Positions 12,325 through 45,663 of a DNA stretch of 45,663 nt are shown here, in pieces (the stretch's first letter is position 1; each line of letters opens with the position of its first letter). Source of the stretch: a virus; the IMG/VR virus record IMGVR_UViG_3300048597_000147, positions 1 to 45,663 of that record; one strand, written 5' to 3'. The notes under the pieces are model-generated. The model was not told the DNA's origin and did no database searches. It saw only the letters and a program-made list of their open reading frames with translations. The position numbers and the translations under genes are program-made.

Positions 12325-12348
12325 CGCCCGGCGAACGAACCGGGCGTC
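12323..12348 (+). terminator. GC hairpin GACGCCCGG-N8-CCGGGCGTC (weak terminator or attenuator)
   Basis: Read directly. There is no U-tract. Confidence 0.35.
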
Positions 12349-12426
12349 AGGTAGAGAGGATGAGCTTGGCACTACTGGTCACAGTGTAGCGGGGCCAGTA
12401 GGTGAGGTTATGTAAGGAGCGTTACC

Positions 12427-22700: not shown

Positions 22701-23576
22701 TACATGATTGACGTGTACCAGGCAGAGAACGTGATTCTGCGTAGGAATGTCGCCATGTGGCGCAGTTGGGACGGTAAGAACTTCTGTGGTGTGTCATGGC
22801 CCAACGGAAACAACCTAGGACTCTACAACTCAAGCACGACCCTAGTAGAGAACAACATTGCCTATGGGCGGGCGCTGACCGGCATGTTCGCACAGGCCAA
22901 CGCCGACGCTGCGGTGGCAGTGGGAAATCGCTTCTTCGGCAATATCAGTGCCCTCATCGGCAGGGACTATGACAATACCCCATGGTTCTACGGAAGTGGG
23001 CAACTGCAACCGGAGGAACGTCCTGGACCCACTGTCAACCCCTACGGGGACCCTTGCCCGACCTCAATCACCAGATGGTCATGGGGCAACCAACAAGACG
23101 CCTACTCCCTATGGGGCCAGGGAGAAATCAGGGATAACGTGTTCAGGGATAACATCGGCCTAGACTCACAGGGCAGCGGCATGAACGCCACCGACCCATC
23201 CGGCACCCCCGGGAACAAGAGCAACAACGTCATGGACCGCTTTACCCTGCGCAGCACCGGGACCAACATCCCGGAATGGCAGAGCCGCAACTACGGGCCG
23301 AACCTACAGATTGCTATGGGGGGGGTATCCGCACCGACCAACAGCCTAATTCCCCTCTCTCCCTACCCGCTACAGGATGGGGCGAGACTGACAAACCGCT
23401 ACATCGATGGGGTCTACACCAGTACCCCCCTCAAGCCCTGGCCGATGGAACAGCGGGCGATGGCGGAAATGGGAGTATCCATTAACGCCATTATCGACAC
23501 GGCTGTAAACCGTGCAGCCGGCGGCAGCATGGCCTGGCCCATCCCCACGGGTGGCACACAACTAGGAGCTCCGTAA
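19692..23576 (+). CDS. 1,294-aa signal-peptide multidomain protein (Pro/Thr linkers; carbohydrate-binding-like, ConA/LamG-like and right-handed beta-helix domains)
   Basis: RRAIIPLLAVLLVLTLVGTVLAQ/S is a Sec-type leader. There are three PT-rich linkers. NWTELGITWDNSPRP...PPVVRIAY resembles DNRLRE-type modules. NTYYISTTGDDRNNGTSLAQAWGTFNRAWETLMPGDTLLIADGTYNQ is a pectate-lyase-fold N-cap. The start may be GTG 19713 (TAGTG overlap). Confidence 0.85.
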   Translation: MVEGPALVRRAIIPLLAVLLVLTLVGTVLAQSAEQGWTVIESGAEFQDGFVALEDVTVDGPLTLAGAMQFASLATLPDKPQAVTAGGIITVTGSLVTLDAQEVVTAGGLGGGSPGDIAILTNSGAYTVTVLGTALGPFDSVAMVYGGTEWLRVATITTASQPPTPTPIATNTPTQTPTNTPTQTPTQTPTFVPTPTNTSTPTPVPPAAQTGTYTTNVPMLQVYSGDPMLDYNNRTLIWGGTIQSTGFPMLRLAGAYDGFRMTWQFADNQVGTGDQATLQIGSVYSTTAPATGDPNGWEVGWRCGIDGGCRGWRAERRTTDWTFLGAGKTYTNTLGTTYPYTVTYRDFDNGSFTVQHIITGTLRFGLQDYSAKSVVGQVITTTVLSADASVGGGPDCGSDDYPDFFPTWGSRNEDGPTNYSARIHLGTHYQANIAQTQGDIADFPCYSKYAGQFPLPNIGSSVVNSATVTVYQFGNPGYGTGYEDDGTKETVVEVGEISPNWTELGITWDNSPRPRENISRTRFYPLPGTCSPTPYWYCVPPIPYELDITEIVKRAYANGQTHASFLAYTAAGQYHSGKFIWTREASGNPSWPPVVRIAYAAAGAPTPTPTTPPTATPTGVPGVLDDFNRTVLGTNWNGPGDATLGYTLNSNSLVMGGNKALLWQPATFGANQRVTVTLAYMDPAATHLGLALKANSTYTRMLEAEYVVGSGVRFWTLDPVWNASAFVSMTLAAGDVWSVEALDNGDLRTYKNGAYIGGRTITFSGNASGGMAGVYAWNSGASRVDNFNATDVGAPNPGATATPTPTNTPTPTGAPPTNTPTATPTMTPLPGTATPTPTPGPGNTYYISTTGDDRNNGTSLAQAWGTFNRAWETLMPGDTLLIADGTYNQSIAPNRRHGLPNARITIKAINDGQVVIDCNSAFECTPIQLGDNPGPGGPYGDYYLVEGIVAREGWLYNVLVKSQHNILRRISAYDTSTDRNSQSILIWNDYNVLEDSISAGTGRYMIDVYQAENVILRRNVAMWRSWDGKNFCGVSWPNGNNLGLYNSSTTLVENNIAYGRALTGMFAQANADAAVAVGNRFFGNISALIGRDYDNTPWFYGSGQLQPEERPGPTVNPYGDPCPTSITRWSWGNQQDAYSLWGQGEIRDNVFRDNIGLDSQGSGMNATDPSGTPGNKSNNVMDRFTLRSTGTNIPEWQSRNYGPNLQIAMGGVSAPTNSLIPLSPYPLQDGARLTNRYIDGVYTSTPLKPWPMEQRAMAEMGVSINAIIDTAVNRAAGGSMAWPIPTGGTQLGAP

Positions 23577-25318: not shown

Positions 25319-25847
25319 TTCCCGCAAGGGCATACTGGAACACTTGCGGCCGGCGTTCCAGTATGTCCCGTTCCCACAAGTTGATAACCTTCTCGATGCG
25401 GATTCCTCCCACGGTCTGACCCGTCAGACGTAGGGCCGCTTCCGCATCCCGCAATCCCTTCGCCTTGGAACGGCCGTGCCAGTATTCGCCCTGAATCTGC
25501 CACGCCATCCCCCGGCCGCCGCCGAGGTCTACCACGAAGTCAGGGATGAGACCCCCGGCGCTGCCACGGCCCCCGGCGACTTGCGCCTGGTAGATGTGGC
25601 GCCAGCCGCCACGGTGCAGCCATTCCAGCGTGATAAGTTCGGGGACTGTCCCCGTTGGGTACTGTTCCTGCAACTGCAGAACCCGCTTTGCCAACTTCTC
25701 GTCACCTACTCTGCGGGTGAGTTCGGTCAGTTCAGTGTCAACCGGCTGCACGTCAAAGGCATCGGGGAAACCCTTGAAGATGGGAATGTCTCGCTTCCGC
25801 TTGCCCTTCTTGAACGGGTTCGAGAATCCCCGGGGCTTCTTGAACAC
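25305..25847 (-). CDS. Second Vsr/DUF559-like PD-(D/E)XK nuclease-fold protein, last gene of the virion operon
   Basis: ELITLEWL...LIPDFVVDLGGGRGMAWQIQGEYWHGRS...INLWERDI matches the E...D...(E/Q)xK-like core and the Vsr-like tail. TAGTG overlap with the upstream gene. Confidence 0.5.
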   Translation of the reverse strand: MFKKPRGFSNPFKKGKRKRDIPIFKGFPDAFDVQPVDTELTELTRRVGDEKLAKRVLQLQEQYPTGTVPELITLEWLHRGGWRHIYQAQVAGGRGSAGGLIPDFVVDLGGGRGMAWQIQGEYWHGRSKAKGLRDAEAALRLTGQTVGGIRIEKVINLWERDILERRPQVFQYALAGISLR

Positions 25848-28045
25848 TAGCTAACCTCCTCCAAGGTCAGCGTGTACACCCACTGAATATCAGGGCCTGC
25901 GGTCTCATGCACGTAACGGACAATCTGGCGTGTCGCCCCCGTGACCTTTACCCGATACTCCAAACCATCCACGTCGATGAAGCGCAGCGGGCCTACCTCC
26001 GCAATAAGTCCCTTCAAGTTGGCTACGACGGTCGCCGTGGGCAGCGGGTTCAATGAGCCATCGGGCATCTGCTGGTCATCATGCACGGCGATAGGCAGCA
26101 CCCAACGCCAGCGGTCGGTCAGCATGGAGGAGTATTTCAGGGCCACCCCACGCAGCACCATGGGCGTGTTCGGGCCGATGGATGTAATGCGCAAGCCCAG
26201 GCGCACCCACTTTCCCGTGGGGCGTTCCGCCCCGAAGTCGATGCTGCCGGCGACTGTCTCCCCGGCCCGACGCCACACGTCAGGCTGCGCCGAGTCCTGC
26301 CAGTAGACGGCGACGGAATAGCTGTTCCCCTCAATGTCCCATACGATACGGTCAAAGTCCTTCTCAACCGTCATGTAGCCGCCGTAGAACTTGTCATACT
26401 CTATCCACAGTTCCCGGCCGAGGCGCATGTTCGCAATCTCACGCACCGGGTTGACCACAGTTGCCGGGTAGTTCGTGCGGTGCAGCCAGTTGCTTTCACC
26501 GCCCCACCACAGGTGACCGTTCACGGGGTCTACTTCAATCCCGCCCCCGCCGATGTACTGCAATCCAAGGGAAAGGCAGTGCCAGCCCTCCACGTTGTAG
26601 GCCCACAGCGAACCGTAACCCGTCGTGCTGGCGGGGTCCATTGACATAAATAGGAAGTGCGCAGAAGGCTTGAGGGTGTAGATGTTGCCCCGAACGTCCT
26701 CGGGTAGTTCCTCCTCAGCGTTCGGGCCGATGTTCATTAGGGCGCCCGACTGGTCATAGCGAACGATGGTATTCGTCAGGGGGATGTATAAGGCACCTTC
26801 CCACGAACACATGCCCTGGCCGTTCTTGTCGCTGCGGTAGGGCCATTCCGCTACCTGCACGATGTAATCCCCATCGGCCAGCATGTACAGCCCGTCATCG
26901 CATGACAGGTAAATGTTCCCGCCCATGGTTCCAAAGCCCCGGACCTTGCTCCCGTAGCCGCCTACAGGCTGCACGTCGGTCCAGGTTGTCCCGTTGCTGG
27001 TGTAGGAGACCCCATTGCTGAATCGCCGCCACAGGAAGCCGTTCGCTACCAGGAACTCATTCACAGGGACTGCGGGGTAGTCTACTTGCGCCAGAGTCGC
27101 CGGGTCATAGGTCTTGTAACCCGCACCGTAGGCAAGCCAAATCAGGCCATCCAAGTAAATCGCCTGTTTGATGGCGGCAGCGCATGACACCAACTGAATC
27201 CCCGAGAGGTCATACAGGGCCGAGCCGATAGTGAAGTAGATACTGCTATCCTTGCGCACGATGTTGCTGACCGTGCCCGTCCCGCCCGTCACATCACGCA
27301 GTACCAGGTGAAACCCTACGCCCTGGCCGTTGGTGAGAACGCTGGTCCAGGAGGCCCCCCCGTTCGTGCTGCTGTTCCCGTTATTGACAGAGACTGGCGG
27401 CAGCCAGCACTTCCAAATGTCTGTCTCGTCCGTGGTCACGGCCAGGTGATACTTCGTGGCGCCGACGATGTTGTAAGAACTCAGGGGCAGCCGGACCCAA
27501 TGAGCGTGTGGCCGCTTCATGCTGCTGACTACGGCCCCGCTGGATAGGAGGGTGCCGGGCTTACCTGCGTTGTTGGCGTAGAGCCGCACGGAAATGGTCT
27601 TACCCTCTGGCACGTACATAAGCACCCACACTTGGGACAAGGCAGTTGCATAGTTCGTAGTGAACTCGCTGGACAGCCATGTACCACTGACGGGGCGCAA
27701 AGGCTGCGCCCCTGCGACGTTCTCAATCCCCGTGGACGTGTGCCGGACTGTGGCGGGGTAGTCCCAGGCAAACGGCATGGTCACCTGGTTCGAGAACCGG
27801 CCGTCACCGTGCATGAACAATGGGCCAGCCTCCGGGTCTTTGTGTCCGACGCCAGGCTTCCATTCTTTGAAGGTGAGGTCTGAGAACGTGTCGAGTTCGC
27901 TGTAGGGCCCACCCGTCGAAACACGGGCGGCGAACGGGTTTGCCGTGGCGCACTGGTAATGAGTAGGGTCTACGAGTGCGTAGTTCTGCAATTGAGGGTT
28001 AGCGTCAACAAGACGCCCGAGTTTGATATGTCCGGTCATGGTCAC
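25847..28045 (-). CDS. Large tail/particle protein (732 aa), repetitive beta-propeller-like
   Basis: Lies in the virion operon. It has recurring strand motifs (SIYFTIGSALYDL, GNIYLSCDDGLYML, GALYIPLTNTIVRY). No family recognised. Confidence 0.6.
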   Translation of the reverse strand: MTMTGHIKLGRLVDANPQLQNYALVDPTHYQCATANPFAARVSTGGPYSELDTFSDLTFKEWKPGVGHKDPEAGPLFMHGDGRFSNQVTMPFAWDYPATVRHTSTGIENVAGAQPLRPVSGTWLSSEFTTNYATALSQVWVLMYVPEGKTISVRLYANNAGKPGTLLSSGAVVSSMKRPHAHWVRLPLSSYNIVGATKYHLAVTTDETDIWKCWLPPVSVNNGNSSTNGGASWTSVLTNGQGVGFHLVLRDVTGGTGTVSNIVRKDSSIYFTIGSALYDLSGIQLVSCAAAIKQAIYLDGLIWLAYGAGYKTYDPATLAQVDYPAVPVNEFLVANGFLWRRFSNGVSYTSNGTTWTDVQPVGGYGSKVRGFGTMGGNIYLSCDDGLYMLADGDYIVQVAEWPYRSDKNGQGMCSWEGALYIPLTNTIVRYDQSGALMNIGPNAEEELPEDVRGNIYTLKPSAHFLFMSMDPASTTGYGSLWAYNVEGWHCLSLGLQYIGGGGIEVDPVNGHLWWGGESNWLHRTNYPATVVNPVREIANMRLGRELWIEYDKFYGGYMTVEKDFDRIVWDIEGNSYSVAVYWQDSAQPDVWRRAGETVAGSIDFGAERPTGKWVRLGLRITSIGPNTPMVLRGVALKYSSMLTDRWRWVLPIAVHDDQQMPDGSLNPLPTATVVANLKGLIAEVGPLRFIDVDGLEYRVKVTGATRQIVRYVHETAGPDIQWVYTLTLEEVS

Positions 28046-28908
28046 ATGAGGTATGGGGCGATGTCGATGCGTTGGCGCACGGGGCGATTAACAACCCAAC
28101 TACGCCAGAACTTATCAACCCGGGCCGAGTAGTATCCAATCATTTCCTGGTGGAGTTGGTTTTCTTTCGGGGCTGCGTTCCCGAGAAACAGTTCGTGCAG
28201 ATGTACGATGGCCTGGTCAATCAGCACCCGGTACAGTTCCATCTTCGGCATAGCGACACCCCACTTAACCGGAGTAGTCAGCACATGGCCGACCCCATTC
28301 GTACCGTTGGGGAATCCACGCACCATCCCAAAGAGCGTGACAGGAGCGCCGTAGTCTACGCCGGCGTACTGCATCCATTCGCTATCAATCTTCACCCATC
28401 CATAATCTGGAATGTCTGCGCCCCCGAGGATGGTCAGGGATGTGGCGGCGCCGTCAATGGTTGCGCTCAATGTGGGCACGCCGATGGGGACGGGCCCGTT
28501 GTGGCCCCACCAAACAAGACGCCCCTCAGATGAGTAGGGGGTAACATCGAATCTGAGGACCCGCTGATTGTCAGCGTTCGGTTCAATTCGCCATCCCGGA
28601 ATGTCAACCCAAGTCTCTGCACTGAGCCTGTACGATGTATACACATCGTAAGCGATTGACGCCTTCATCTGCGGCTGCAAGTTCTCAGAGGGGATGTAGT
28701 CGGGGAGGATGTATTCATACTGCCCCGCCTTCCACCCATCCTGAATTGTATGGATGTGAGGCACACGCACCCGGCCGTGCCAGGTCAGCAGGGCATCATT
28801 GATAGCCCCATACATTTCCTGGTCAGTCCAGCGTTCGCTGCTGTTATCCCGTACTCTCGCCCGCAAGTCTGCCAGGATGGTTACCTGGTCCCTCAGATAT
28901 ATTTCCAC
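28042..28908 (-). CDS. Putative head-tail adaptor/tail protein (288 aa)
   Basis: The N-terminus ILADLRARVRDNSSERWTDQEMYGAINDAL resembles gp6-like connector openings. WVKIDSEWMQYAGV...VRGFPNGT parallels the insertion motif in the capsid protein. Confidence 0.5.
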   Translation of the reverse strand: MEIYLRDQVTILADLRARVRDNSSERWTDQEMYGAINDALLTWHGRVRVPHIHTIQDGWKAGQYEYILPDYIPSENLQPQMKASIAYDVYTSYRLSAETWVDIPGWRIEPNADNQRVLRFDVTPYSSEGRLVWWGHNGPVPIGVPTLSATIDGAATSLTILGGADIPDYGWVKIDSEWMQYAGVDYGAPVTLFGMVRGFPNGTNGVGHVLTTPVKWGVAMPKMELYRVLIDQAIVHLHELFLGNAAPKENQLHQEMIGYYSARVDKFWRSWVVNRPVRQRIDIAPYLM

Positions 28909-32273: not shown

Positions 32274-32939
32274 CTATGGGAACATGGACAGCGGGTTACC
32301 CCTATAGTTCCCACCATACGGGTCGTACATCATCCCGTTACCGGGTTGGGGGGCGAAACGCACCCGGTCATCACCCGTAGGAGGGTAGGGCATGTTAGGG
32401 TTCGGCGGGCGCCAGGCCGGGCGCTGCTGGCCTACCTGCGGAATGAATACCTGCAAGTCCTCAGCCATCATTTGCTCCGGGGCTTCGTAGCCGCTTTCAA
32501 CCTGCTGGCCCATCCACGGCTGCCGCCAGGCTGACGGGCGTACCCCACCATTGCGGGCCGTGGGGTAGGGTTGGCCCGTAGCCGGGTCCAGGCCGCCAGG
32601 CGCAAGAACGTTCGGGTTGTTGCCGAGGCGGGGACGTAGGTCCTCAGTCGCTGTGGCCGTGGATGCGCCGGCCATAGGCGCCTTGTCCCATCCCCGCCGC
32701 ACCGCCCGGCCGCCCGAGTTGTAGCCCGTGGTCATCGTGGCGCCGACGTTAGGGTTCGCCTGGTATTCCCGCTTCTCCTCCTTGCGCTGGATGGGGGATG
32801 CGCCGGCATCCCCCGCACTCTGGTAGTCGCCCCATGCCACGTTGCCGAGGCTGTCAATCTTGCGCCCGTAGCGGTCGAAAGAAACTAACCCATCGGCACT
32901 AACATAGGCTGCATTGTCTGGATGCTTGTTCTTAGCCAT
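32274..32939 (-). CDS. Pro/Gly/Asn-rich low-complexity protein (221 aa), internal-virion candidate
   Basis: ORF between the giant gene and the scaffold gene. No fold recognised. Confidence 0.6.
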   Translation of the reverse strand: MAKNKHPDNAAYVSADGLVSFDRYGRKIDSLGNVAWGDYQSAGDAGASPIQRKEEKREYQANPNVGATMTTGYNSGGRAVRRGWDKAPMAGASTATATEDLRPRLGNNPNVLAPGGLDPATGQPYPTARNGGVRPSAWRQPWMGQQVESGYEAPEQMMAEDLQVFIPQVGQQRPAWRPPNPNMPYPPTGDDRVRFAPQPGNGMMYDPYGGNYRGNPLSMFP

Positions 32940-32948: not shown

Positions 32949-35900
32949 TCACTTCCATTTCGTCCGGGCCGGTTTGAGTCGGTCGCCAGCGTAGAACCAG
33001 TCAGGCAATTCCCCCACCCGCTGGATGGGGCGCCACTCCTTGATGTATTGTGGGAGAACCTCTAAGTTCCTGTCCATCCCCTGCGGGTCAACGTAGGGGG
33101 TCCGGGGTTGGAATCCACCACCGCCACCGCCATATCCCCCACCACCACCGCCACCACCCCATCCGTTGCGGGTCGGTCCACCGCCCCCACGGAACGCCGA
33201 GGCGGGCAATAGTCCACTTCCGGCTGCACGCTGTTGCTGCGGCAGCAGTCCATACCACCAGTCGAGCCATTCCTTTAATCCCTCCTGGTCACGAATCGCC
33301 CGACGTTCTTCACCCGTCGCCGTGCGGTATCGCTCCACCTTATCCCAAATGTCCCGGCCGAACATGCGTTCGGCTTCCGCCCAATCCGTCCCATAGTTGC
33401 GTTCTACGCTGGTGCGGTTCGGGTCATAGGGGCGAGGTCGCCCGTCCACCCACGCATCCACCATCCACGCCTTGGGGTTGGCATCCAAGTAGGCGCTGCG
33501 CCGTTCCTGGTCCCCGGGGTTGTCGGTCCACTTCGGGGTTCTGGCCCACGCCAGCACAGCGTCAGCCCCATAGCGTCCACTGAGGAACTTGAAGCCTTCC
33601 GGTTCAAATGCCGCCAGGTTGTACGCATCGACTTCCGGGTATTGCTCCTTGAAGCGTGCCCGGGCATCACCCTTCGGCAAGTCGAGGTACTGTTCCCACA
33701 GGGACAGCGCACCATCCCCGTAAGCGTTTGCCACTTCGTAGCGTCTTGCGCCCCAATTTGCATCCCCTTGCTTCTCGTAGCTTTCCCAGGCGATGCGGTT
33801 CTTCTCACGCTGCTGCTTCTCTAAGTCGGTGTAGTTGCGCTCCTGGCGTTCCTTCCACATCGACGCCGCTTCTTGCTCAGAGAATCCGAGGGCCACCAGA
33901 CCGGCAACAACGCTCTCATCACGCTTTCGGTAATAAGCATCTGTCTCCTCCCGTGATGCGCCTTCACCCGGGCGCCCTGGCATATCGTAGGCAGCGTCAA
34001 ATACTGCATCCGCATCGGCCATCCGCTTCTCATCCGGGTTCATGCCCCCGTCATAGGTAAACCCATTCCCGGGCCCGTTGCTGCTAGGAATCGGGTACTT
34101 CTCACTGAGGGCGTTCGCCCCGTCGTAGGCCCCGCTAATCTGTGGCTGCCACTTGTCCATCACGCCCCGGCGAATCTTCGTGAGTTCACCAGACTTGATG
34201 TTCGGGTTCGCCAGAATCGCAGCATCAACGGCAGCATCCGCTTCCGCCTTTGCCTGCGCACGCAGGTCCTCGCCCTGGTCATAGCCTGCGCTAATCTGTG
34301 CGCTGGCGCCTGGAGGTCTCCCCTCGCCGCCAGGGATGAGAACACTGGTCCCCCACCCTACCGGCAACTCGGGATTGCTTTCCAGTACGGAATCCCGAGC
34401 CGCCTTGCTTCCGCCCGGGTTCGCCGGCCCATAGCCAAACTCCCGATACTGCTGCGCTGCGGCCCGGGCTTCCTTCTCCCCTTCGGGGTAATACTGGTTC
34501 GTGAGACCCGTCAACCAGCCGCCCAACTCACGGCCAAACCGTTCGACGCCAGCCCCTGCTACGTTCTGTTCGTAGGCAGCCTTGGCCGCCTCCAGATTGC
34601 CCGGAGGAATGAGCGTGCCGGGGTCCACACCTTCTTGGATGTTGTCGGCGTACTGCATCGCATACTGCGCCGTCGCCTGGTCCAGATTGCCCTGCGCCGT
34701 GTTGTTGCGGATAGTGCGGCCCACGAAGTACGGGTCAAACTCTGTTCCGAGAGAGAACATCCCCCCCGTCTGCATCCCCGCCTGGCCCGCTGCTTGCAGA
34801 CCGTAGGCGCCGATGCGGGCCAGCGGGAAGTAGTCGCCTATCTGCTGCGCCTCTGACCACTGCTGGAAGCGAGGTTTTTCCCCGTCCTTGACCGGCATGT
34901 TTTCATCCATCCACGCCCACAGAGGCCCCTGATACCATGGGAATGTTTTCTCCCCGAGGTACTGGAGGGTCGAGTTGAGAACATTCTGCTGCACGTCCTC
35001 TGATTCAATCTCCTCAGTGAACGCCGAGGGCATGTACATGGAAAATGGCAGCGTCCAAACCAGCGGGTTCTGCAACCGGTCAGGCATCCATGGAGTATCG
35101 ATAACCTCTTTCAGCGGGTTCGGAACCGTGCCCTGTAACCGCTGCGGGCGCTCCACTACCTGGCCGTCCACGACGTCTGTGCGCTGGTTCTCGCCAGCGA
35201 TAGCCCGCTGTGTCTCCATCCAGAAGTCCAGCAGGGCCGGCTTTGCCATCACCCGCTGCATCCAGTTCCCGGCCGACCGGGTAAAGTAGTAGTGGAACGG
35301 CAGCACCAGGGCCAGGGCCGTGTCAATGTTGCGACGGTCGTTAAAGTCCATCATCGCAAACTCGCCCATCTTGCGCCCGTGGTCGCTGGCCGCACGCATC
35401 ACGTTATCCCACGCAGGTAGGAGCCGCTTGTTCACAATGTCCAGAACCTGCAACTGCTGTGCCGGAGTAAGTTTGTTCGGCTGCCCCGCCAGGATTGAGG
35501 CGAGGTTCGCCCGGAGATATTCTTCCAACTTGTCCACGCTTTGCAGTTGGCGCAGGGCAGCATCGCCCGCTTCCGGCATCGACTTACGTGCGAGCCGGGC
35601 CTGTTGAATCCCCTGCTTGATGGATGCGTAGGCATCCCCGTCAGGGGTGAAGGACAGACCCTCGCCCGTGGGGTGCCACATGCCCCGACGTGCCGGACGG
35701 GGAACCATCCAGTCAGGCCACGCCTTGACCGCACCGAGGCCCCCACGCATTTCAAACAGGGCATCCTGCCCGCCATTCTTCATACTGTCGATGGCAGATT
35801 GAAGCATCGCCAGTTTATCGGCGCCGCCTCCGGCGAACAGGGCATCCTGCCCGCCCATGACGTTCAGCGCATTGTCGGCATACCGGTTAAGTGCTGCGCT

Positions 35901-38900
35901 GATTGTCTTGCTTGTCCGAATGTTGGCGTCGAAGAACTGGACCAGTGCCTTTGTCGCCTCGTCCATTTCTCCGAATAGGCCGACCTGCTGCAATACCGTA
36001 GCAATGCTTTCGCCCTTGTTCCGCACGTCGAGCAGAGTCATAGCGGCATCGGCCAACTCCCGCCCGATAGCAAGGTCCGGGTTCTGCAGTTGAAGCTGCG
36101 CCAGTTTGCCGATGGTGCGTTCGATTGCGTTCCCGATGTTGGCTAGGTCGGGCTGCGGGTTCATCACATAATTGCGCAGGATGGCGTCAGCGTCTGAGAA
36201 CACGGTAGCAAACAACGCACCCCTAATCGTGTCTACGCCTTGCGTCGTCAGTTCCCCGTTCGGCCCAACAAACGCAGCACGCTCCGTGTCTGGAATCTTA
36301 GCCATGACACGACGCACGAACTCCCTGCTACTGGCAAGCGATAGGGCTTGCCGTAGGTTGTCAGTCGTCTTGGTGTCGAAGTTCACAAGGTCGCCGGCCG
36401 TCAGTTTGCGGGCGAGGGTCTTGGCCGATTCAGATGCGTTGTACGCCAACGTAGTACGCTGGTTTGCTTCTTGCGCAAATGCAACGGGGTCCACATCCTG
36501 CGGCAGCCTACGCACAAGTACGGGCTTATTCATGCCCTCCAAGCGGGCGGCGGGAATACCAAACTGTGCCGCCCGCTGTGATAGTGCGGTGCGGTAGTTC
36601 TGATAACTGGCGTCGTCGGCCAGGCGCATCGCCATTGTGCGCCCGTTCCCCGACAACACAACTCCGCTACTGTCCACAATAGGACTGCCACGGTCCAGGG
36701 CATTTGTTCCGGCCAGCAACTCGTCAGGGTCGAGCCGCTGCGCCATCGTGTTGACCTGCTGCAATCCCGCCGCTTGGCTGCGGTCACGGGGCTGTAGTGC
36801 AGCCGGGTAAGCTTGATTCACCCGGCCGCTTGCATCGTTGGATGCAACGAGAGCATCCAGTTCCACCACATCATATTGCGCCGTGTACTTGCGTGTGGGG
36901 TCGCTCCAGATTTCCACTGTGGCGCCAGCACTGGCGGGCGTGCTGGAAGTAGCACGCTTGTTGTAGTACGCCAGCACCTTCGGCAAATCGGCAGGAGACA
37001 AGTCCTCTAGCTTGCGGATGCGCCCCGTGAGACCGATTTCCTGGCGATGCTTGTTGATACTGTTGACAAGCCATTTGTCCGTCTGGTCCGTGCCGATGTT
37101 CGCACTTGACGCCACCTTGCGCACGTCGGTCAGCGTAGTTGTTGCCGTACTCGCAACAGGTGTAGGTTCCTCAAAATCGTTAACCTTTGGGGTTAACAAT
37201 TCTTCCGGTACATCATCCGCTGCGAGGGCGCCTTCTTCAAGCACATCATCCAAGACGGGGGTCAACAATTCTTCCGGCACGTCGTCCGTGACGAAGCCCG
37301 CCTCGCCCATGGCATCCGCCGTCGCCTGGGGGTCAGCCTTGGCAGCCTCGATGAACTCATCCGGCGAACGCAGCGGCGCCACGTCCTCCATTACATCATC
37401 AACAATCTCCTCGATGTTGCCTTTGACCAGGGCCTTGTAATCTTCAATAACCTGCTTGGGAACATAGACCCCATTCCCACCTGACACGGCCCGAGCCGCC
37501 TCAGTGTTGCCGACAATCTTCGGACCACGGGACGGCCCGCCCAACATTTCAGGAGTCGCCCCGCTTTTGGTTTGTGGGGCCTGCCCCCGTCCCTCCTCCA
37601 GAAGTCGCACCAAGTTCCCGTGATGGTCACGGGCAAGCCACGTCCCCGGGGTATCGTCGGTCGCCTCGCCTACCAGGTGGAAGTCACCAGCGAACGGGTC
37701 AGACCAGCGCAGTTTTGTCGGTGTCTGTTCGGCTAGGTAGTTCCAGACGACCGCACGCTTGGCAGCCGCAAACGCTTCTACGCTCTCATCTGCCAGCCGG
37801 TTCCACATCTGGTTGCGGTAGGTGAAGAACGCATCCCAATCTTTCGTGGCCTTTGCTTCTTCCGTCGCACGCCGCACCGCCCCGGCAGTCTGCGCACCCA
37901 TGGCGTCAGCCTGGCGCATGACGGCCGTAATAATGTCCAGGCTGTCAGTCGTCGGGAATCTGCGCAGCACGTCGAACAACTCAATGGCCGACCGGTCCAC
38001 AATGACACGGTTCGCTTCCCGAGCCGCCTTGTGCGCTGCATCGTCCCACGTTGCCCCCGGGTCGGCCATCCGTGCCGCCGCAATGTCCAACTCGTTGTAG
38101 TTGAAGTACCGGTCAATTACCTTGTTCCAGTCGTAACCGGTCGGCAGCGGTTCGCCGGCAGCATTGCGCAGCAGTGCCTGGCGAGATTCATCCATGACCC
38201 CTTGGAACTTGGCTGCGTACTCCTGCCACGCCTGCGCCGTCTGCTGATAGGCCCGCTGCCACACGGCCGTGCGTTCGGCCATGTTAGTTGTGCCGACGTT
38301 CGCCGCCTTAATCGCTTCCTGGTTAATCCCATCGACCAGCATCCGGGTTTCAACCTTGAGGTCATAGATGCGATTCCACACATCCATCCCGAACTGTAGG
38401 GCCTTGGGGTCCTGGGTCTGCACCAGGTCATCCATGAACGAACGATAGCCGTTGTCCTCAGTGCGGAGAATCTGTTTGGCAATCCGCCACGCCTCGGCGC
38501 CCGCCTCCTTCGCCCCGGTCCCACCCTTGCGGGCAAGCTGCGTGAGGTTCCGGGTCAGCAGGGCAGCGTCGTCAAGCTGAATATCCTTCGTGAACTCAGG
38601 GCGCCAGGATGGAGGTCCACCCGCTACAGCGTTCTCCGCATAGCGCCGGGCCCTCTCCAGAATCGGCTGCATCTTCGCCCACGCCTGCGCAGCCTGTTCC
38701 GGCCCATGGGTCTGAATAATGTCGTTGATTGCCCCACGCAATTCCAGGGGCATAAGCTCATCGGGGATGCGTGCAGCGGTCGGGTCCTTGACCACCATCC
38801 CCGCCACCGCCTCACGCATCTTGCCTGCAACGTTGGTCTTGTCCCCCGTCTTGGCGGCCTCAATCGCAACGTTCGCCAGCACCCGAGCTACATCGTCCTC

Positions 38901-41021
38901 TAGCCCCAGGGCCTGCACTGCTGGCCGGAACTGTTCGGCTACCACGTCCTTCCAGAATCCGTCAAAGGACCGGATGAACGTCGTCCCCCAAATCTTGTCG
39001 TAGTACGCCTTCTCACCCACCGCCACCGTGCCGCCAAGCATGGTAGTGTCGCCCTGCCATACATTGCTTGTCGCCCGTGACGCCCGGGCAATGGGGTTCT
39101 TCTCACTCAGCCCAAACATCTGTGTCCAGTGCCTGGCCGTAGCTTGTCCAGCTTCCGTAAAGGTCTTGTCTGACTGGAAGCGCATATCGACAGGGGCGCC
39201 GCCCGTGCGCCGCTGCACGTCTGCGATAATGCTGGCGATAGGGCGCAGAGAGTAGGTATCGTCCCCGATGGCGTTCGCCGCTTGTGATGCCGCCTGGCGA
39301 ATCCAGTTGCGGGGCGCCAGGTTCAAGTACCCATCTACCAGGATGGCACGCAGGAACCGAGAGGGCCACGATACCGCCTTCATAAGCGGGTTCATTTCGT
39401 CGCTGACACCGTAGGCTTTGCGGGCCGTGTCCTCAATCACCTTGGCAAATTCGGGGATGAACTTTGCCGGGTCAAGTGCCCCCTCGCCTTGCAGCGACTT
39501 CATGCCACGCAGACCCTCGCCGGCCGCTGCCAGGATGGGATAACGCTTAATGACCTCCTTATTCCCGAGGAGACCAGCGCCCACCCGGTACTGACCTTGC
39601 GAGTCGGCCATCTGCCCCGCCAACTGGATACCGTTGACCAGACCACGCCCGCCCGTGGTAATCCAGTCCTCCATGATGGCCTGCATTTGTCCCTTGTCCC
39701 GGATGCCAGTCGCCAGCACCATCGCAGTCTCTGTCAGGCTGCGTGCGTCGAGGTACGCCTTGGCCTGGTTCGTGCGGGCCAGCGGGTTCATTACCTCTGA
39801 CCAGAACTTGCGAATGTCCTCGCCTTGCAGAACCTTCTCGGCGACGGGCCCCGACGCCTTGACCACATCGTTGATGCGCTTGGTGGCGATTGCCGGGTCT
39901 ACGTTGAAGCTCTGCACCGCCCGGGCGCCTTTTGCCAGTTTGGGGGTCATCCCCAAAAGCGACGTCGCCCCGCCCGTCATCCAGTCCACGGGGTCCACGG
40001 CGACACCGAACATAATCTCGGCCCACGGGTTCTGTGTCGATTCGATAATCTCCCGTTCGCTGAGAGAGTTTAGCCGGTTCCACTCCTGGCCGTAGCGGGC
40101 TGCGGCCAGTTCATCCCCTGCGGCCTTGGCCGTCTGCATCTTGGCGTATGCTTCCTTGGCCTTCTCCTCACGGTTGATGATTGTCTCGAACGTATCCGGG
40201 GAGTTGAGAGACTGAGCGTTCGACGTGAACACTCGCCACGCTACCTCCCGCTGTTCAGCCGGTAACTGGTTGATGTCGGTGCGGTACTGAATCTGTGCGC
40301 CGACCTGCTTCCGTGCCTCGTCGTAGTTCTCCCCGAACTGCAACAGGTTCTTGTTCGGGTTGAACGGGTTCAACGACTGATTGACTACCTGCCCCGCCGA
40401 AGCAAGCGAATCGGCCAGCGAGAATTGATACTCCTGCCCCTCACGCAGCCCATAGGGGTCATCCTTCTGGCCCTTGTAGGGGATGAAGGGCGCCGTAGTC
40501 AGTGCCCGAGTTGGAGCGTCGAACCACTGATATGTAAAGTCCAGCACGTTGTCATACCCCGGGAACAGTTCGGGGTTCTCGTCGGTGCGATTCTGCTGCG
40601 CCTGCCAGTCGGCATACTTGGCGGCCGGGGAATCCCCCTGACCAATCCAGTCGAGCAAGGTCCCGGAGGGCATACCCGGCAGCCCCTGGTTACGCACAGG
40701 GACGGACAGTTCATCACGCATCCCGCCAGGCTGCGCACCTTGACGCCACGGGCCAGCATCCACCCGTGTGCGGTCATCCCTATCGGGGCGCCGTTCTCGC
40801 CGGCGTTCTTGGGGTTCGGCCCGCTGTCGAGGCGCATCTGCAGGGCCGCCCCGTACAATCTGACCCGTGACCAGCGGCTGCAACAGGCGAGGGGTTTCCC
40901 TGGCCTGCTGCTGCTGGCGCTGCACTACGGATTGCTTCTCTTTCTGTTCCTGGCGCCCGTAGTCGCCCTTATTCTTCTCCAGCCACTTCTTAATGCTGTC
41001 GGGGTCTGACCAGTTCGGCAT
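32949..41021 (-). CDS. Giant 2,690-aa protein (polyvalent/head-internal candidate) with a ParB/Srx-like segment
   Basis: Uninterrupted 8.07-kb ORF between portal and scaffold. AYPAALQPRDRS...LDRGSPIVDSSGVVLSGNGRTMAM (nt about 36640-36800) resembles ddrB-type ParB domains of polyvalent proteins. It has a duplicated DDVPEELLTP segment and a poly-Gly C-terminal region. Confidence 0.85.
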   Translation of the reverse strand: MPNWSDPDSIKKWLEKNKGDYGRQEQKEKQSVVQRQQQQARETPRLLQPLVTGQIVRGGPADAPRQRAEPQERRRERRPDRDDRTRVDAGPWRQGAQPGGMRDELSVPVRNQGLPGMPSGTLLDWIGQGDSPAAKYADWQAQQNRTDENPELFPGYDNVLDFTYQWFDAPTRALTTAPFIPYKGQKDDPYGLREGQEYQFSLADSLASAGQVVNQSLNPFNPNKNLLQFGENYDEARKQVGAQIQYRTDINQLPAEQREVAWRVFTSNAQSLNSPDTFETIINREEKAKEAYAKMQTAKAAGDELAAARYGQEWNRLNSLSEREIIESTQNPWAEIMFGVAVDPVDWMTGGATSLLGMTPKLAKGARAVQSFNVDPAIATKRINDVVKASGPVAEKVLQGEDIRKFWSEVMNPLARTNQAKAYLDARSLTETAMVLATGIRDKGQMQAIMEDWITTGGRGLVNGIQLAGQMADSQGQYRVGAGLLGNKEVIKRYPILAAAGEGLRGMKSLQGEGALDPAKFIPEFAKVIEDTARKAYGVSDEMNPLMKAVSWPSRFLRAILVDGYLNLAPRNWIRQAASQAANAIGDDTYSLRPIASIIADVQRRTGGAPVDMRFQSDKTFTEAGQATARHWTQMFGLSEKNPIARASRATSNVWQGDTTMLGGTVAVGEKAYYDKIWGTTFIRSFDGFWKDVVAEQFRPAVQALGLEDDVARVLANVAIEAAKTGDKTNVAGKMREAVAGMVVKDPTAARIPDELMPLELRGAINDIIQTHGPEQAAQAWAKMQPILERARRYAENAVAGGPPSWRPEFTKDIQLDDAALLTRNLTQLARKGGTGAKEAGAEAWRIAKQILRTEDNGYRSFMDDLVQTQDPKALQFGMDVWNRIYDLKVETRMLVDGINQEAIKAANVGTTNMAERTAVWQRAYQQTAQAWQEYAAKFQGVMDESRQALLRNAAGEPLPTGYDWNKVIDRYFNYNELDIAAARMADPGATWDDAAHKAAREANRVIVDRSAIELFDVLRRFPTTDSLDIITAVMRQADAMGAQTAGAVRRATEEAKATKDWDAFFTYRNQMWNRLADESVEAFAAAKRAVVWNYLAEQTPTKLRWSDPFAGDFHLVGEATDDTPGTWLARDHHGNLVRLLEEGRGQAPQTKSGATPEMLGGPSRGPKIVGNTEAARAVSGGNGVYVPKQVIEDYKALVKGNIEEIVDDVMEDVAPLRSPDEFIEAAKADPQATADAMGEAGFVTDDVPEELLTPVLDDVLEEGALAADDVPEELLTPKVNDFEEPTPVASTATTTLTDVRKVASSANIGTDQTDKWLVNSINKHRQEIGLTGRIRKLEDLSPADLPKVLAYYNKRATSSTPASAGATVEIWSDPTRKYTAQYDVVELDALVASNDASGRVNQAYPAALQPRDRSQAAGLQQVNTMAQRLDPDELLAGTNALDRGSPIVDSSGVVLSGNGRTMAMRLADDASYQNYRTALSQRAAQFGIPAARLEGMNKPVLVRRLPQDVDPVAFAQEANQRTTLAYNASESAKTLARKLTAGDLVNFDTKTTDNLRQALSLASSREFVRRVMAKIPDTERAAFVGPNGELTTQGVDTIRGALFATVFSDADAILRNYVMNPQPDLANIGNAIERTIGKLAQLQLQNPDLAIGRELADAAMTLLDVRNKGESIATVLQQVGLFGEMDEATKALVQFFDANIRTSKTISAALNRYADNALNVMGGQDALFAGGGADKLAMLQSAIDSMKNGGQDALFEMRGGLGAVKAWPDWMVPRPARRGMWHPTGEGLSFTPDGDAYASIKQGIQQARLARKSMPEAGDAALRQLQSVDKLEEYLRANLASILAGQPNKLTPAQQLQVLDIVNKRLLPAWDNVMRAASDHGRKMGEFAMMDFNDRRNIDTALALVLPFHYYFTRSAGNWMQRVMAKPALLDFWMETQRAIAGENQRTDVVDGQVVERPQRLQGTVPNPLKEVIDTPWMPDRLQNPLVWTLPFSMYMPSAFTEEIESEDVQQNVLNSTLQYLGEKTFPWYQGPLWAWMDENMPVKDGEKPRFQQWSEAQQIGDYFPLARIGAYGLQAAGQAGMQTGGMFSLGTEFDPYFVGRTIRNNTAQGNLDQATAQYAMQYADNIQEGVDPGTLIPPGNLEAAKAAYEQNVAGAGVERFGRELGGWLTGLTNQYYPEGEKEARAAAQQYREFGYGPANPGGSKAARDSVLESNPELPVGWGTSVLIPGGEGRPPGASAQISAGYDQGEDLRAQAKAEADAAVDAAILANPNIKSGELTKIRRGVMDKWQPQISGAYDGANALSEKYPIPSSNGPGNGFTYDGGMNPDEKRMADADAVFDAAYDMPGRPGEGASREETDAYYRKRDESVVAGLVALGFSEQEAASMWKERQERNYTDLEKQQREKNRIAWESYEKQGDANWGARRYEVANAYGDGALSLWEQYLDLPKGDARARFKEQYPEVDAYNLAAFEPEGFKFLSGRYGADAVLAWARTPKWTDNPGDQERRSAYLDANPKAWMVDAWVDGRPRPYDPNRTSVERNYGTDWAEAERMFGRDIWDKVERYRTATGEERRAIRDQEGLKEWLDWWYGLLPQQQRAAGSGLLPASAFRGGGGPTRNGWGGGGGGGGYGGGGGGFQPRTPYVDPQGMDRNLEVLPQYIKEWRPIQRVGELPDWFYAGDRLKPARTKWK

Positions 41022-41043: not shown

Positions 41044-41117
41044 AAACTTCCCGCTAAACTTCCCTAAACTTCCCTGCCAAGGAAACCCAAGAAATGTTTC
41101 TTGGTTTCTTGGGTTTC
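41044..41117 (-). promoter_or_regulatory. Intercistronic element: 3x AAACTTCCC direct repeats plus nested 13-bp-arm palindrome
   Basis: The repeats are at 41044-52, 41056-64 and 41066-74. GAAACCCAAGAAA (41082-94) can pair with TTTCTTGG (41097-104) or TTTCTTGGGTTTC (41105-117). Confidence 0.6.
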
Positions 41118-42091
41118 TACCATGACCGCACCCACCGGCTGTTGGGGGTTTGCGTGCGACCAAACGCCTGCATCCGAGCAATCGCCTGTTGGTTGGCGTA
41201 GTTCTCCCGGGTAAGTGAAGCCTCTTGACCAAGCTGCGTGCGGCGGAAAGATTCATCCTGGCGCTGCTTGAGTTCAGCAAGAGCCATTTCCCGCTGCTGT
41301 GCGGAGAGTTGCCCACGCTTCCACATATCGTCAATCCGGTTCTGTTCCTGGCCGATACCAACTTGATTGCGCTGATACCAGTCCCGAATCTCAGCCTCAC
41401 GGTTCCCAAGTTGCAACTGGCCCCGGCCCATCTCCTGGTCAAAGCCGAACTGCTTGTCCCAATTGCCCTGCTGCTGGCGAGATACCCATTCCGCCATGTC
41501 CTGCTGACGGCCGGCCAGCCCCTGACTGAACCGGTCATTTTGCTGCTGCCATCCGAACTGGTCATTCCAACGGCGCTGCGCCTCGTTGAAGTCCATGCCG
41601 TACTGGTAGCTGTTCTGGCGCAACTGCTCCCATGGCAGCATCTGGCCGAAGTTCGCAACGGCCTGCGGGTCGATGCTTTTCCAGGTGTTCCAGTCGCCCC
41701 ACCCGTACCCCGTGAACGGCGAGGAGTATTGCGCCTGCTGCCCGCCGCCGAGAGGCGCCCACGATTGCCCGCCACCCCACGGGCCCGTATCCATCGAGGG
41801 GGTAGGCTGTTGGCCTGCCTGGGGCTGCTGGCCCTGCTGCGGGTAATTCTGTTCCATCCACAACTGCATGAGGTTCTTGTAGTTCCCCGGCCCGTCGTTC
41901 GCTGCGCCCATGGTGTTCATCTGTCCACCTTGCGCCCCCTGCGTGCGAACCGGCTGCGTGCTGTACTGGTCAGGCTGCGGCGCCATCCCCATCTTGTTCC
42001 TGGCGTCGGGGATGGCGTTCCGTCCCATCTGAGGCGCCGGGGGCTTCCACTGCGCTTGATACTGCTGTCCATACTGATTGCTGTATGCCAT
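41117..42091 (-). CDS. Gln/Asn/Trp/Gly-rich protein (324 aa), internal-virion candidate
   Basis: TAATG overlap with the portal stop, and a GGAGGAAT RBS. The alternative frame 41035-41775 is rejected. Confidence 0.7.
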   Translation of the reverse strand: MAYSNQYGQQYQAQWKPPAPQMGRNAIPDARNKMGMAPQPDQYSTQPVRTQGAQGGQMNTMGAANDGPGNYKNLMQLWMEQNYPQQGQQPQAGQQPTPSMDTGPWGGGQSWAPLGGGQQAQYSSPFTGYGWGDWNTWKSIDPQAVANFGQMLPWEQLRQNSYQYGMDFNEAQRRWNDQFGWQQQNDRFSQGLAGRQQDMAEWVSRQQQGNWDKQFGFDQEMGRGQLQLGNREAEIRDWYQRNQVGIGQEQNRIDDMWKRGQLSAQQREMALAELKQRQDESFRRTQLGQEASLTRENYANQQAIARMQAFGRTQTPNSRWVRSW

Positions 42092-45536: not shown

Positions 45537-45663
45537 GATACCCCGTTCCTACCCCAAAAAATCTAGTGGGGGTAGGTGTGTTGTGGTGTTCTGTGATGTG
45601 GTGTTATAGGGTGTCGTGTCGTGTTCTGCGCTCCGCTGCGTTGCACTGCGCTGCGCTGTGCAT
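45537..45663. repeat. Terminal overlap copy 2 (identical to 1-127)
   Basis: See copy 1. Confidence 0.95.

Follow-up and report, generated by a model that had tools for sequence, protein, structure and literature searches.

A giant cysteine-free protein from the head-gene block of an uncultured phage with an SU10-type capsid: a candidate ejection and carrier protein with an exchangeable effector slot

The analyzed stretch of DNA, referred to below as the window, is the 45,663-nucleotide IMG/VR virus record IMGVR_UViG_3300048597_000147; the head-morphogenesis block of this phage contains an open reading frame (ORF) of 2,690 codons. We consider it somewhat probable that the product of this ORF, the giant protein, is a head-internal ejection or carrier protein with a swappable effector slot. 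Two conserved blocks of about 1,000 amino acids (aa) each form its chassis, and between them lies a cassette homologous to the N-terminal part of DdrB of phage P1. In relatives the cassette is replaced by other sequences or is missing, the chassis is near-universal in the clade, and the protein contains no cysteine (Cys). We infer from these features packaging into the head, ejection, conduit formation and an anti-restriction activity of the cassette. A preliminary description of the window had taken the ORF for a giant polyvalent protein, packaged in the capsid and injected for counter-defense or DNA protection.

Architecture and composition of the giant protein

The ORF is open from its start to its stop codon with no internal stop, in agreement with the earlier statement that a single uninterrupted frame takes up about one sixth of the genome. 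The giant protein has a mass of 296 kDa, an isoelectric point of 5.15, 10 histidine residues and no Cys. The following parts were distinguished in it:

32949..41021, minus strand: giant ORF, ATG start, 2,690 codons, stop codon at 32949-32951; 17.7% of the genome
40695..41021, minus strand: N-terminal extension (aa 1-109), low-complexity, Q/R/P-rich, net charge +6
37602..40694, minus strand: N-module (aa 110-1140), conserved all-alpha block with a small beta unit at its end; no family or fold match
37158..37601, minus strand: acidic linker (aa 1141-1288), net charge -22, with DDVPEELLTP twice
36951..37157, minus strand: small conserved domain (aa 1289-1357), ...VRKxAxxxGIGTD...YYxKRA, directly upstream of the cargo insertion point
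35745..36950, minus strand: cargo cassette (aa 1358-1759), DdrB-type ParB/Srx domain with a helical extension; PHROGs 5143, 2299 and 14693
36507..36896, minus strand: core of the Pfam domain PF18763, ddrB-ParB (aa 1376-1505), within the cassette
35755-35774 and 35836-35855, minus strand: 20-nucleotide exact direct repeat at the 3' edge of the cassette; both copies encode GGQDALF (aa 1723-1729 and 1750-1756)
33192..35744, minus strand: C-module (aa 1760-2610), conserved all-alpha block that begins with GGLGAVKAWPDWMVPRP
33111..33191, minus strand: Gly-rich linker (aa 2611-2637, RGGGGPTRNGWGGGGGGGGYGGGGGGF), kept across the family, with poly-Gly runs at aa 2612-2636
32952..33110, minus strand: C-terminal tail (aa 2638-2690), VDPxxMDRxLxV...WRP...DWxxAGxxLKPxRTxW[KR], W/R-rich and conserved

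The start of the N-terminal extension, MPNW..WLEKNK, is kept in close relatives, and the length of the extension varies from 40 to 670 aa across the wider family. Both low-complexity features pointed out earlier, the poly-Gly stretch near the C-terminus and a duplicated acidic module, were found; DDVPEELLTP occupies aa 1246-1255 and 1269-1278, and the corresponding DNA repeat (37189-37219 and 37258-37288) is 87% identical between its copies. The most conserved motif of the family, MMDFNDRRNxDTALALVLPFHYYFTRSAGNW, is located at aa ~1889-1920 in the C-module. Invariant residues of the chassis are mostly P, G, W, R and D, and conserved residues of a catalytic type were not found among them. The C-terminal tail is a candidate encapsidation or portal-interaction signal.

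The C-terminal part of the C-module (aa ~2440-2530; window positions 33400-33900, minus strand) contains a helical unit with the pattern W.xYxxLPKGxxARxxYKxxHPE...NLAAxxPxGY...YGxDA..WA. The A9 consensus suggests that this unit is present in two copies in many relatives, with a C-module of 1,150-1,400 aa versus about 930 aa.

The lack of Cys is a trait of the whole family: 124 of the 137 members that carry both modules have none, and the overall Cys frequency is 0.007%. In the same genome, the capsid protein has 3 Cys residues, the nozzle-like protein 6, the tailspike-like protein 10 and the integrase 7; the giant protein, the products of the two genes flanking it ("pre" and "post") and the scaffold candidate have 0. 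As a control, the ejected core proteins gp15 and gp16 of phage T7 also contain 0 Cys, and other T7 virion proteins contain 2-5. Gp75 of phage Bcep22 has 0 Cys in 4,602 aa. Such avoidance would be expected of a chain that passes unfolded via the tail channel into the oxidizing periplasm.

The chassis family and its variable slot

A search of 5.8 billion proteins gave six relatives that are collinear with the giant protein (2,307-2,632 aa); four others (2,815-4,686 aa) were more distant. When the close relatives were compared by blastp, aa 1-1357 and 1760-2690 were conserved at 37-65% identity, and the middle was replaced or missing. The slot extends from ...YYxKRA (aa 1357) to GGLGAVKAWPDWMVPRP (aa 1760, GGLGAV..WPDWMVPRP) and is ~402-403 aa long here; it is occupied by unrelated sequences of 190-199 aa in relatives P0002-P0006 and by 16 aa in P0007. 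The small conserved domain in front of the slot (aa 1289-1357) was found in P0002-P0007 regardless of the cargo.

An exhaustive HMMER search with a nine-sequence N-module profile against 1.84 billion representatives yielded 204 representative clusters, 131 of them with E-values below 1e-30; nearly all of these proteins were 2,000-5,300 aa long. Among the fetched proteins, 137 carried both the N-module and the C-module, always in this order and with a gap of 22-2,864 aa between them, and the C-module almost always ran to the C-terminus. Members nearly devoid of cargo (gap of 43-56 aa in P0092, P0191 and P0204, 16 aa in P0007) keep the chassis of about 2,000 aa. Both the Gly-rich linker and the tail motif, ...WRP...W..AG..L.P.R..W[RK], reappear throughout the family. 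The giant protein has both modules in the family order, with the C-module followed by the Gly linker and the W/R tail, and its gene lies upstream of the scaffold candidate and SU10-type capsid genes. It was among the sequences used to build the profiles, and its own match is by construction; the independent evidence comes from the 130-plus other proteins and from the 21 loci described below.

The earlier statement that most domains of the protein are undescribed stands insofar as no described domain covers most of its length. The remaining 85% does not, however, look like a string of unknown effector domains, because the two conserved blocks of about 1,000 aa always co-occur and do so in the same order.

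Cargo domains were counted in Pfam scans of 47 other members out of about 137 full-length ones (two members longer than 5,000 aa were left out of this family-wide scan). Peptidase_M23 (4/47), SLT transglycosylase (2/47), ddrB-ParB (4/47), SNF2 (2/47), ART-PolyVal (2/47), DUF3626 (2/47) and RadC/JAB (1/47) were identified, and most slot inserts matched no known domain. The position of a domain relative to the slot was mapped for P0204, the other members contributing counts alone; in P0204, M23 lies within the span of the C-module match (aa 1386-2446), outside the 56-aa gap between the modules. The cargo is thus a mix of cell-wall hydrolases and counter-defense domains. Wall hydrolases are characteristic of the ejection proteins of podophages, e.g., SU10 gp20 (PMC9509320), and the annotation of T7 gp16 likewise shows such a domain (transglycosylase). 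ART, SNF2 and ddrB-ParB have been named as hub domains of polyvalent proteins (PMC5512222). Ten members whose clusters were looked up, as well as the closer relatives, all came from metagenome assemblies and were annotated at most as "hypothetical protein".

Comparison with giant ORFs at the same locus, proposed as a check in the preliminary description, thus gave collinear homologues with the same neighbors and a variable slot. The full-length homologues of 2,300-2,900 aa came from many independent JGI, ENA and Logan assemblies; because they recur in this way, the ORF is not a product of chance or of assembly error. The source of the window is a single metagenomic contig, and an ORF produced by mis-assembly or by a frameshift fusion, or open by chance in G+C-rich DNA, has to be considered; we found no support for such an artifact and regard its likelihood as practically negligible. 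Besides the collinear homologues, it is contradicted by the closest relative, locus L014, which has an identical architecture including the cassette, and by the moderate to good confidence with which aa 110-1140 and 1760-2690 could be modeled (see below). The assembly error, named earlier as a finding that would overturn the description, was therefore not borne out.

The distribution of the chassis and of the cassette was analyzed in 55 IMG/VR loci fetched by capsid-protein similarity alone, the upstream DNA of which was searched with the module profiles. Capsid identity was at least 30% in 22 loci with sufficient upstream sequence; in 21 of these, an open frame of 1,700-2,900 aa lying shortly upstream of the capsid gene contained the C-module. 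In the remaining one, L024, the open frame is 1,549 aa long and has no module match. The C-module was absent from all of the approximately 30 loci with 24-29% capsid identity. The ParB cassette was found in one of the 22 loci (L014, by tblastn) and, as mentioned above, in 4 of the 47 other family members. Since the chassis is near-universal and the cassette sporadic, the chassis has the behavior of a clade-defining core gene and the cassette that of an accessory one. This pattern fits a core virion or ejection function with accessory cargo rather than a purely accessory counter-defense protein.

The ParB cassette

The match to PF18763 scored 108.4 bits (113 bits with the excised segment) against a cut-off of 27.6; aa 1376-1505 corresponded to profile positions 3-119 of 121. 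Residues ~1383-1762 aligned with aa 44-439 of P1 DdrB at 31% identity (E-value 2e-45), up to the Gly-rich end of the module. The motifs LQPRDR (aa 1409-1414) and SGNGRT (aa 1457-1462) of the ParB/Srx pocket, the arginine of which has been described (PMC5512222), are conserved with P1 DdrB. Judged by this similarity, the ParB/Srx-like segment noticed earlier is clearly a true homologue of the N-terminal part of DdrB and a member of the ddrB-ParB family.

The darA operon of P1 encodes DdrB, a protein of 995 aa. As one component of the Dar anti-restriction system, it is processed and packaged into the head (PMC5512222, PMC12810830); according to a prediction by Iyer et al., what is packaged is its N-terminal, ParB-containing part (PMC5512222). 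The ddrB-ParB domain is a hub domain of phage polyvalent proteins, and ParB-type domains bind DNA (PMC5512222). The ParB domain, the helical extension and the Gly-rich end are shared by DdrB and the giant protein. DdrB is, however, a free-standing protein with a C-terminal metallopeptidase-like half, which is absent from the giant protein (no HExxH motif and no peptidase match in Pfam), and no alignment was obtained past DdrB aa 439. Conversely, DdrB is devoid of the N- and C-modules, the module profiles scoring negative on it, and P1 is a myovirus, unlike the SU10-type short-tailed phage studied here. On these comparisons, the giant protein as a whole is not a DdrB orthologue. When the giant protein was searched by tblastn against phage records, ddrB was the only match within P1. 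DarA, Hdf, DarB, Ulx and DdrA gave no Pfam or PHROG match among 30 other ORFs of the complete genome, a search of low sensitivity for small fast-evolving proteins.

In L014 the cassette (4326-5507) is 72.6% identical to that of the window, versus 61% and 63% for the N- and C-modules (546-3599 and 5508-8336, respectively). The higher identity of the cassette suggests either its recent horizontal exchange or a stronger constraint acting on it. At the 3' boundary of the cassette, the GGQDALF sequence is doubled, and P1 DdrB has a single related sequence, GDMFGGG, at the aligned position. The doubled sequence may be a duplication left by the insertion of the cassette, or a repeated linker.

The presence of a DdrB-type cassette here, together with the ART, SNF2 and RadC cargo of the relatives, brings forward a different explanation, close to that of the preliminary description, according to which the giant protein is a pure vehicle for the delivery of counter-defense effectors, packaged and injected, with no role as a DNA conduit and dispensable on permissive hosts. 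The chassis would just bring effectors into the capsid and the cell, as DarA and Hdf do for DarB and DdrB of P1, and part of it may consist of undescribed anti-defense domains. It is consistent with this explanation that ddrB-ParB elsewhere sits in classic polyvalent proteins of 3,000-4,500 aa with LPD, SNF2, methylase and SLT domains, that DarB-like giants of the Bcep22 gp75 type are virion-associated (PMC9144972), that the chassis has no transmembrane segment and that most family members lack a wall hydrolase. Accessory anti-defense genes are normally patchy, however, and the chassis was present in 21 of 22 clade loci picked independently of it. Moreover, nearly cargo-less members keep the full chassis of about 2,000 aa, and it is difficult to see why 15% of a genome should be spent on a vehicle without load; the chassis lacks catalytic-type conserved residues, and the complete genome offers no other candidates for ejection proteins. 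We therefore consider a pure delivery vehicle rather unlikely.

Structure prediction and remote-homology searches

AlphaFold2 models were built with 41-sequence alignments for aa 110-1140 and aa 1760-2690. The mean predicted local distance difference test (pLDDT) score was 78 for the N-module and 75 for the C-module, with a core above 90 in the latter, and both models were almost wholly helical, which agrees with the earlier impression of a mostly alpha-helical protein. The low-confidence stretches of the C-module include the most conserved motif; MMDFNDRRN...GNW may be an interaction surface. The combination of AlphaFold with Foldseek, proposed earlier as a check, thus resolved two helical blocks and gave no usable fold match: the best E-values against PDB were 0.22 for the N-module and 0.65 for the C-module, and the best match of the C-module in BFVD had an E-value of 0.014, a probability of 0.21 and a template-modeling (TM) score of 0.08. 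The top Foldseek matches (ABC transporters, dynein, tape measures and "internal virion protein B") were rejected as generic long helices with TM-scores of ~0.05-0.1.

Within the giant protein, Pfam, PHROGs and tblastn recognize aa ~1377-1762 alone. Megablast of the ORF against 50,697 phage records gave no match, and in tblastn of the giant protein against the same records only the ParB cassette was matched; likewise, only the M23 domain of the distant member P0204 found matches (endolysins and tape-measure proteins). The search of PDB sequences with the family profile returned nothing except noise caused by the Gly linkers of single-chain antibody fragment (scFv) chains, and the most conserved motif (81 aa) returned nothing. 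In Pfam searches with the whole protein and with five overlapping pieces at E-values up to 10, ddrB-ParB was the only domain found. Rotamase_2, DUF6827, Maf1, RuvA_C and GRP were discarded as they were all far under the cut-offs, and phrog_22097 was discarded with an E-value of 0.0096 over 19 residues. Phage_Mu_F/MuF-C gave no match at E-values up to 0.1 with the whole protein or up to 10 with the pieces; LPD, MPTase, ArdC, SNF2 and methylase families gave no Pfam match at E-values up to 10 with the five pieces. The domains recognized do not establish the product as a polyvalent protein in the sense of Iyer et al. (2017), with two or more conflict-related domains in one polypeptide: a single conflict-type domain, the hub domain ddrB-ParB, is recognizable in it and no LPD, MuF, methyltransferase or helicase domain. 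Its gene does lie among the virion genes of a phage with terminase and portal candidate, as is usual for polyvalent proteins.

We failed to find Walker A, HExxH, DxDxD or HD[SAC] motifs in the giant protein. This bears on the idea of a giant virion enzyme with a catalytic chassis, either a virion RNA polymerase (vRNAP) such as gp50 of N4 or those of crAss-like phages, or a novel DNA-modifying enzyme. The size and the three-part layout recall the N4 vRNAP, and no polymerase, an RNA polymerase included, was recognized among the other proteins of the genome. In addition to the missing DxDxD, HD[SAC] and Walker A motifs and the presence of just 10 His residues, no polymerase was matched in Pfam, PDB or Foldseek searches; the center, where N4 has its polymerase, is precisely what varies or is missing in the relatives, and the phage looks temperate and dependent on host transcription (serine recombinase, regulators with helix-turn-helix (HTH) or sigma-r4-like domains). 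An enzymatic chassis is accordingly very improbable.

Position in the head-gene block

The ends of the window, 1-127 and 45537-45663, are identical over 127 bp. This exact overlap indicates a complete closed phage genome, circular or terminally redundant, of 45,536 unique bases. On the minus strand the genes are arranged as follows: large terminase, portal candidate, "pre", giant ORF, "post", scaffold candidate, capsid gene. The large terminase matched PHROG 2, and the capsid protein is of the SU10 type (Pfam SU10_MCP, PF17236, E-value 1e-51). The labels of the portal candidate (634 aa) and the scaffold candidate (213 aa, 0 Cys) are given by position and size; the portal candidate had no direct match, and its additional support is a single 46%-identical homologue with PF05133. 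With these two labels being positional, the head-morphogenesis location reported earlier is supported. Genes immediately flanking the giant ORF and those of the putative tail are listed below:

41117..42091, minus strand: "pre", 324 aa, Q/W-rich, 0 Cys; follows the portal candidate and precedes the giant ORF; kept in all relatives
32274..32939, minus strand: "post", 221 aa, P/G-rich, 0 Cys; N-terminal ~150 aa kept in relatives
28042-28908, minus strand: 288-aa gene downstream of the capsid block; no direct match
25847-28045, minus strand: 732-aa nozzle-like gene downstream of the capsid block; no direct match

The order terminase, portal, pre, giant, post, scaffold and SU10-type capsid was kept in the contigs of nine out of nine relatives, and pre, post and the scaffold candidate were conserved. 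Pre and post are likely partner proteins of the giant protein. The last ~20 codons of pre encode ~MQAFGRxQxPxxRW[IV]RSW, which is recognizable in eight out of eight relatives. The extreme C-termini of both pre and the giant protein (...AGxxLKPxRTxW[KR]) are W/R-rich, and may represent a shared docking or encapsidation signal. The N-terminal motif of post, HPxNAAYVSADGLVSFDRYGRKLDSxGNV, is found in L003 at the C-terminus of the gene upstream of the giant ORF (1099-1719); this relocation indicates that small partner genes are shuffled or fused differently among relatives.

A gene pair in relatives is the counterpart of the 288-aa and 732-aa genes, and its 291-aa member (L005, 20496-21371) weakly matches SU10_adaptor (PF24175). 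Judged by this correspondence, the tail is probably of the SU10 adaptor/nozzle type. No match was obtained when PDB sequences were searched with pre, the portal candidate or the nozzle-like protein. In agreement with the preliminary description, no tail-tube genes were recognized in Pfam and PHROG scans of the genome, the absence consisting in a lack of matches, and the giant gene is not placed like a tape-measure gene. A tape measure was rejected owing to the position of the gene between the portal and scaffold candidates and to the capsid and adaptor of the podophage SU10 type; tape-measure matches in BFVD were non-significant (E-value of at least 0.04, TM-score ~0.08). The ejection proteins gp20-24 of SU10 are numbered directly after the tail genes gp16-18 (PMC9509320). 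Here, a 180-aa ORF alone follows 3' of the nozzle-like gene before the strand switch. Since the genome is complete, pre, giant and post are the only unassigned proteins of the virion block big enough for an ejection role.

The location inside the head-assembly block, between portal and scaffold, would also suit some other internal structural protein (a head core, a DNA-spooling or genome-organizing protein, a portal plug, or an assembly or size factor) that stays in the capsid or acts in assembly only; the cargo domain would then act on the packaged DNA, e.g., by binding it inside the head. The all-alpha and Cys-free composition, which is that of the scaffold candidate as well, the conserved N- and C-terminal motifs, which could dock on portal or scaffold, and the DNA binding by ParB-type domains (PMC5512222) are compatible with such a role. 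However, M23 and SLT domains and the host-directed ART and SNF2 cargo make sense only in a protein that leaves the capsid, a separate scaffold-like gene is already present, and the proteins co-ejected with the DNA in P1 include the homologue of the cassette (PMC12810830). A resident structural protein therefore seems improbable to us.

Proposed mode of action

Under the reading preferred here, that of an ejection or carrier protein, the N-module (aa 110-1140) and the C-module (aa 1760-2610, with the Gly linker and the W/R tail) would make up a fixed chassis, built into the procapsid beside the portal, probably together with pre and post. At infection the chassis, for the most part unfolded, would pass through portal and nozzle before the DNA or together with it, and would then help the genome across the cell envelope, as gp14/15/16 of T7 and gp20-24 of SU10 do. 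The insertion site between the blocks would accept exchangeable effector modules; in this phage, a DdrB-type ParB/Srx module would be delivered with the DNA. By analogy with the Dar system of P1, the cassette probably acts on or beside the entering DNA to blunt restriction.

A bolder version of this proposal, which we hold tentatively and place just short of an even chance, is that the chassis is the unrecognized, clade-defining ejection machine of a large uncultured group of podophages with SU10-type capsids, in which one chain of about 2,000 aa replaces the multi-protein ejectosome of T7, P22 and SU10 and has a dedicated effector slot. The slot effectors might then, at a similar level of doubt, include ParB/DdrB, ADP-ribosyltransferase, SNF2 helicase, JAB, M23, SLT and unannotated cassettes of up to 2,800 aa.

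Several observations weigh against an ejection role. Packaging is deduced rather than observed, the family members examined all coming from metagenomes, and the near-universality of the chassis in the clade shows its importance, not which function it has. The gene is located between portal and scaffold, whereas ejection genes follow the tail genes in T7, P22 and SU10. No wall hydrolase was found in the giant protein, pre or post, and six of the 47 relatives have one (M23 in four, SLT in two). The giant protein has no hydrophobic or transmembrane-like segment (top 19-residue Kyte-Doolittle mean of 0.97). The module profiles scored ~0 bits on T7 gp14-16, and neither sequence nor fold likeness to any known ejection protein was detected; T7 gp15 (7k5c) and the T7 core proteins (9jyy) did appear in the Foldseek list and were dismissed as noise (E-values of 2-8, 2.1 for gp15; probabilities of 0.02-0.03), the search having been run on whole multi-domain models and being less sensitive to single domains. 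As for the cassette, Ulx, DarB and DdrB are said to "confer sensitivity to" the EcoB/EcoK systems (PMC12810830), and DdrB's own contribution in P1 is poorly defined, which makes the activity of the cassette uncertain.

Comparison with known systems

The ejection proteins gp14/15/16 of T7 and gp20-24 of SU10 are helical proteins of the virion interior that leave it ahead of the DNA and bridge the periplasm; gp15 and gp16 are Cys-free like the giant protein. T7 gp16 and SU10 gp20 carry transglycosylase domains, in line with the SLT and M23 domains of the relatives (2/47 and 4/47, respectively). Their genes form an adjacent set, and pre, giant and post, all Cys-free, are adjacent likewise. However, T7 and SU10 use three to five smaller proteins encoded after the tail genes, while here one chain of ~300 kDa is encoded before the scaffold.

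Gp50 of the podophage N4, a protein of about 3,500 aa, is packaged in the head and injected; its flanks serve transport and encapsidation, and its center is the functional "cargo". Unlike gp50, the giant protein has no polymerase motif or match, and its center is variable and dispensable in the family, homology having been judged from PDB, Pfam and PHROG searches. Encapsidation of the N4 vRNAP depends on a region that contains a metallopeptidase-like domain (PMC5512222).

Gp47 of phi24B, a temperate 933W-like podophage carrying Shiga toxin (Stx), is a large polyvalent protein of 2,811 aa. Proteomics identified it as a virion component, and the reconstructions of capsid and tail did not show it; it has been suggested to be packaged and to serve as the ejection protein (bioRxiv 10.64898/2026.04.10.717836). 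It is likewise a giant protein of a temperate podophage, and the functional idea is the same as that proposed here. Gp47 consists of LPD5, LPD1 and LPD38 domains and a MuF-C metallopeptidase, none of which was detectable in the giant protein; the two were compared by description only.

The Bcep22-like phages are temperate podophages with a serine or tyrosine recombinase and a giant virion protein, which is Cys-free in the case of gp75. Gp69 of JC1, the homologue of gp75, was found in virions by mass spectrometry and takes up ~22% of the JC1 genome; the DarB-like giants of Lessievirus are 4,500-4,600 aa long (PMC9144972). Bcep22 gp75 carries helicase-type anti-restriction domains, and SNF2 occurs in some relatives of the giant protein. 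A shared backbone was rejected as the N- and C-module profiles scored negative on gp75. Besides, the gp75 gene stands at the end of the virion module before lysis, versus between portal and scaffold here, and the capsid genes of Bcep22 are of the 933W type, versus the SU10 type here.

MuF proteins and SPP1 gp7 carry toxins or effectors as fused domains, which are delivered alongside the DNA (PMC5512222), and their genes are portal-proximal in the head block, as is the giant gene. The effectors of MuF proteins are C-terminal fusions, in contrast to the internal cargo described here, and the giant protein is ~5 times larger and has no MuF match.

In its proposed function the chassis comes closest to phi24B gp47, the DarB-like giants such as Bcep22 gp75, the N4 vRNAP and the MuF-effector fusions, none of which is demonstrably homologous to it. 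A giant packaged carrier or ejection protein is of an already known kind; on balance, what appears to be new is the chassis together with an internal, defined cargo slot.

Other genes of the genome

Features outside the head block were the following:

9593-11077, minus strand: large serine recombinase with Resolvase, Recombinase and Zn_ribbon_recom domains
5897-6544, minus strand: 215-aa protein with a sigma-70 region-4-like HTH
19692-23576, plus strand: tailspike candidate, 1,294 aa, CBM96/pectate-lyase-like

The genome also encodes HTH/sigma-r4-like regulators and a DnaB_2-type replication protein. Like the Bcep22-like phages, this phage appears to be temperate and to target polysaccharides. 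One GTDB match, a contig binned to a metagenome-assembled genome (MAG) of Planctomycetaceae, was obtained, and no host could be deduced from it; the MAG labels on the portal homologues (Rhodoferax, Caldilineaceae, Chloracidobacterium) conflict with each other.

Positions 1-130 of the window form a G/T-rich low-complexity end region (GTGTGTTGTGGTGTTCTGTGATGTGGTGTTATAGGGTGTCGTGTCGTG...) just upstream of the terminase end of the map, which may be tied to a packaging or regulatory site.

HNH_3 homing-endonuclease genes on the opposite strand flank the giant gene on both sides in L001 (3089-3586 and 10941-11648) and L002 (4771-5268 and 12623-13330). In L006, an opposite-strand HNH_3 gene (12193-12696) is located 3' of the giant gene, past a 136-aa ORF; the window contains no such gene. 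HNH_3 homing endonucleases could promote the exchange of the giant-gene region between co-infecting phages.

Significance

It is understood for only a handful of model phages how a short-tailed phage brings its DNA and proteins into the cell through the envelope, and the link of giant virion proteins to this step is recent (phi24B gp47). The family described here comprises about 200 sequence clusters, with a fixed, unannotated chassis of about 2,000 aa that is cleanly separable from the variable cargo. Every insert in the slot is a candidate early-acting injected effector, and most of them match no known domain. The extreme avoidance of Cys, also seen in T7 gp15/gp16 and Bcep22 gp75, may serve as a cheap marker for ejected virion proteins, and the defined insertion point is an engineering lead for protein-delivering phages. 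If the ejection-machine reading is true, the chassis would be a natural modular platform for protein injection coupled to genome delivery.

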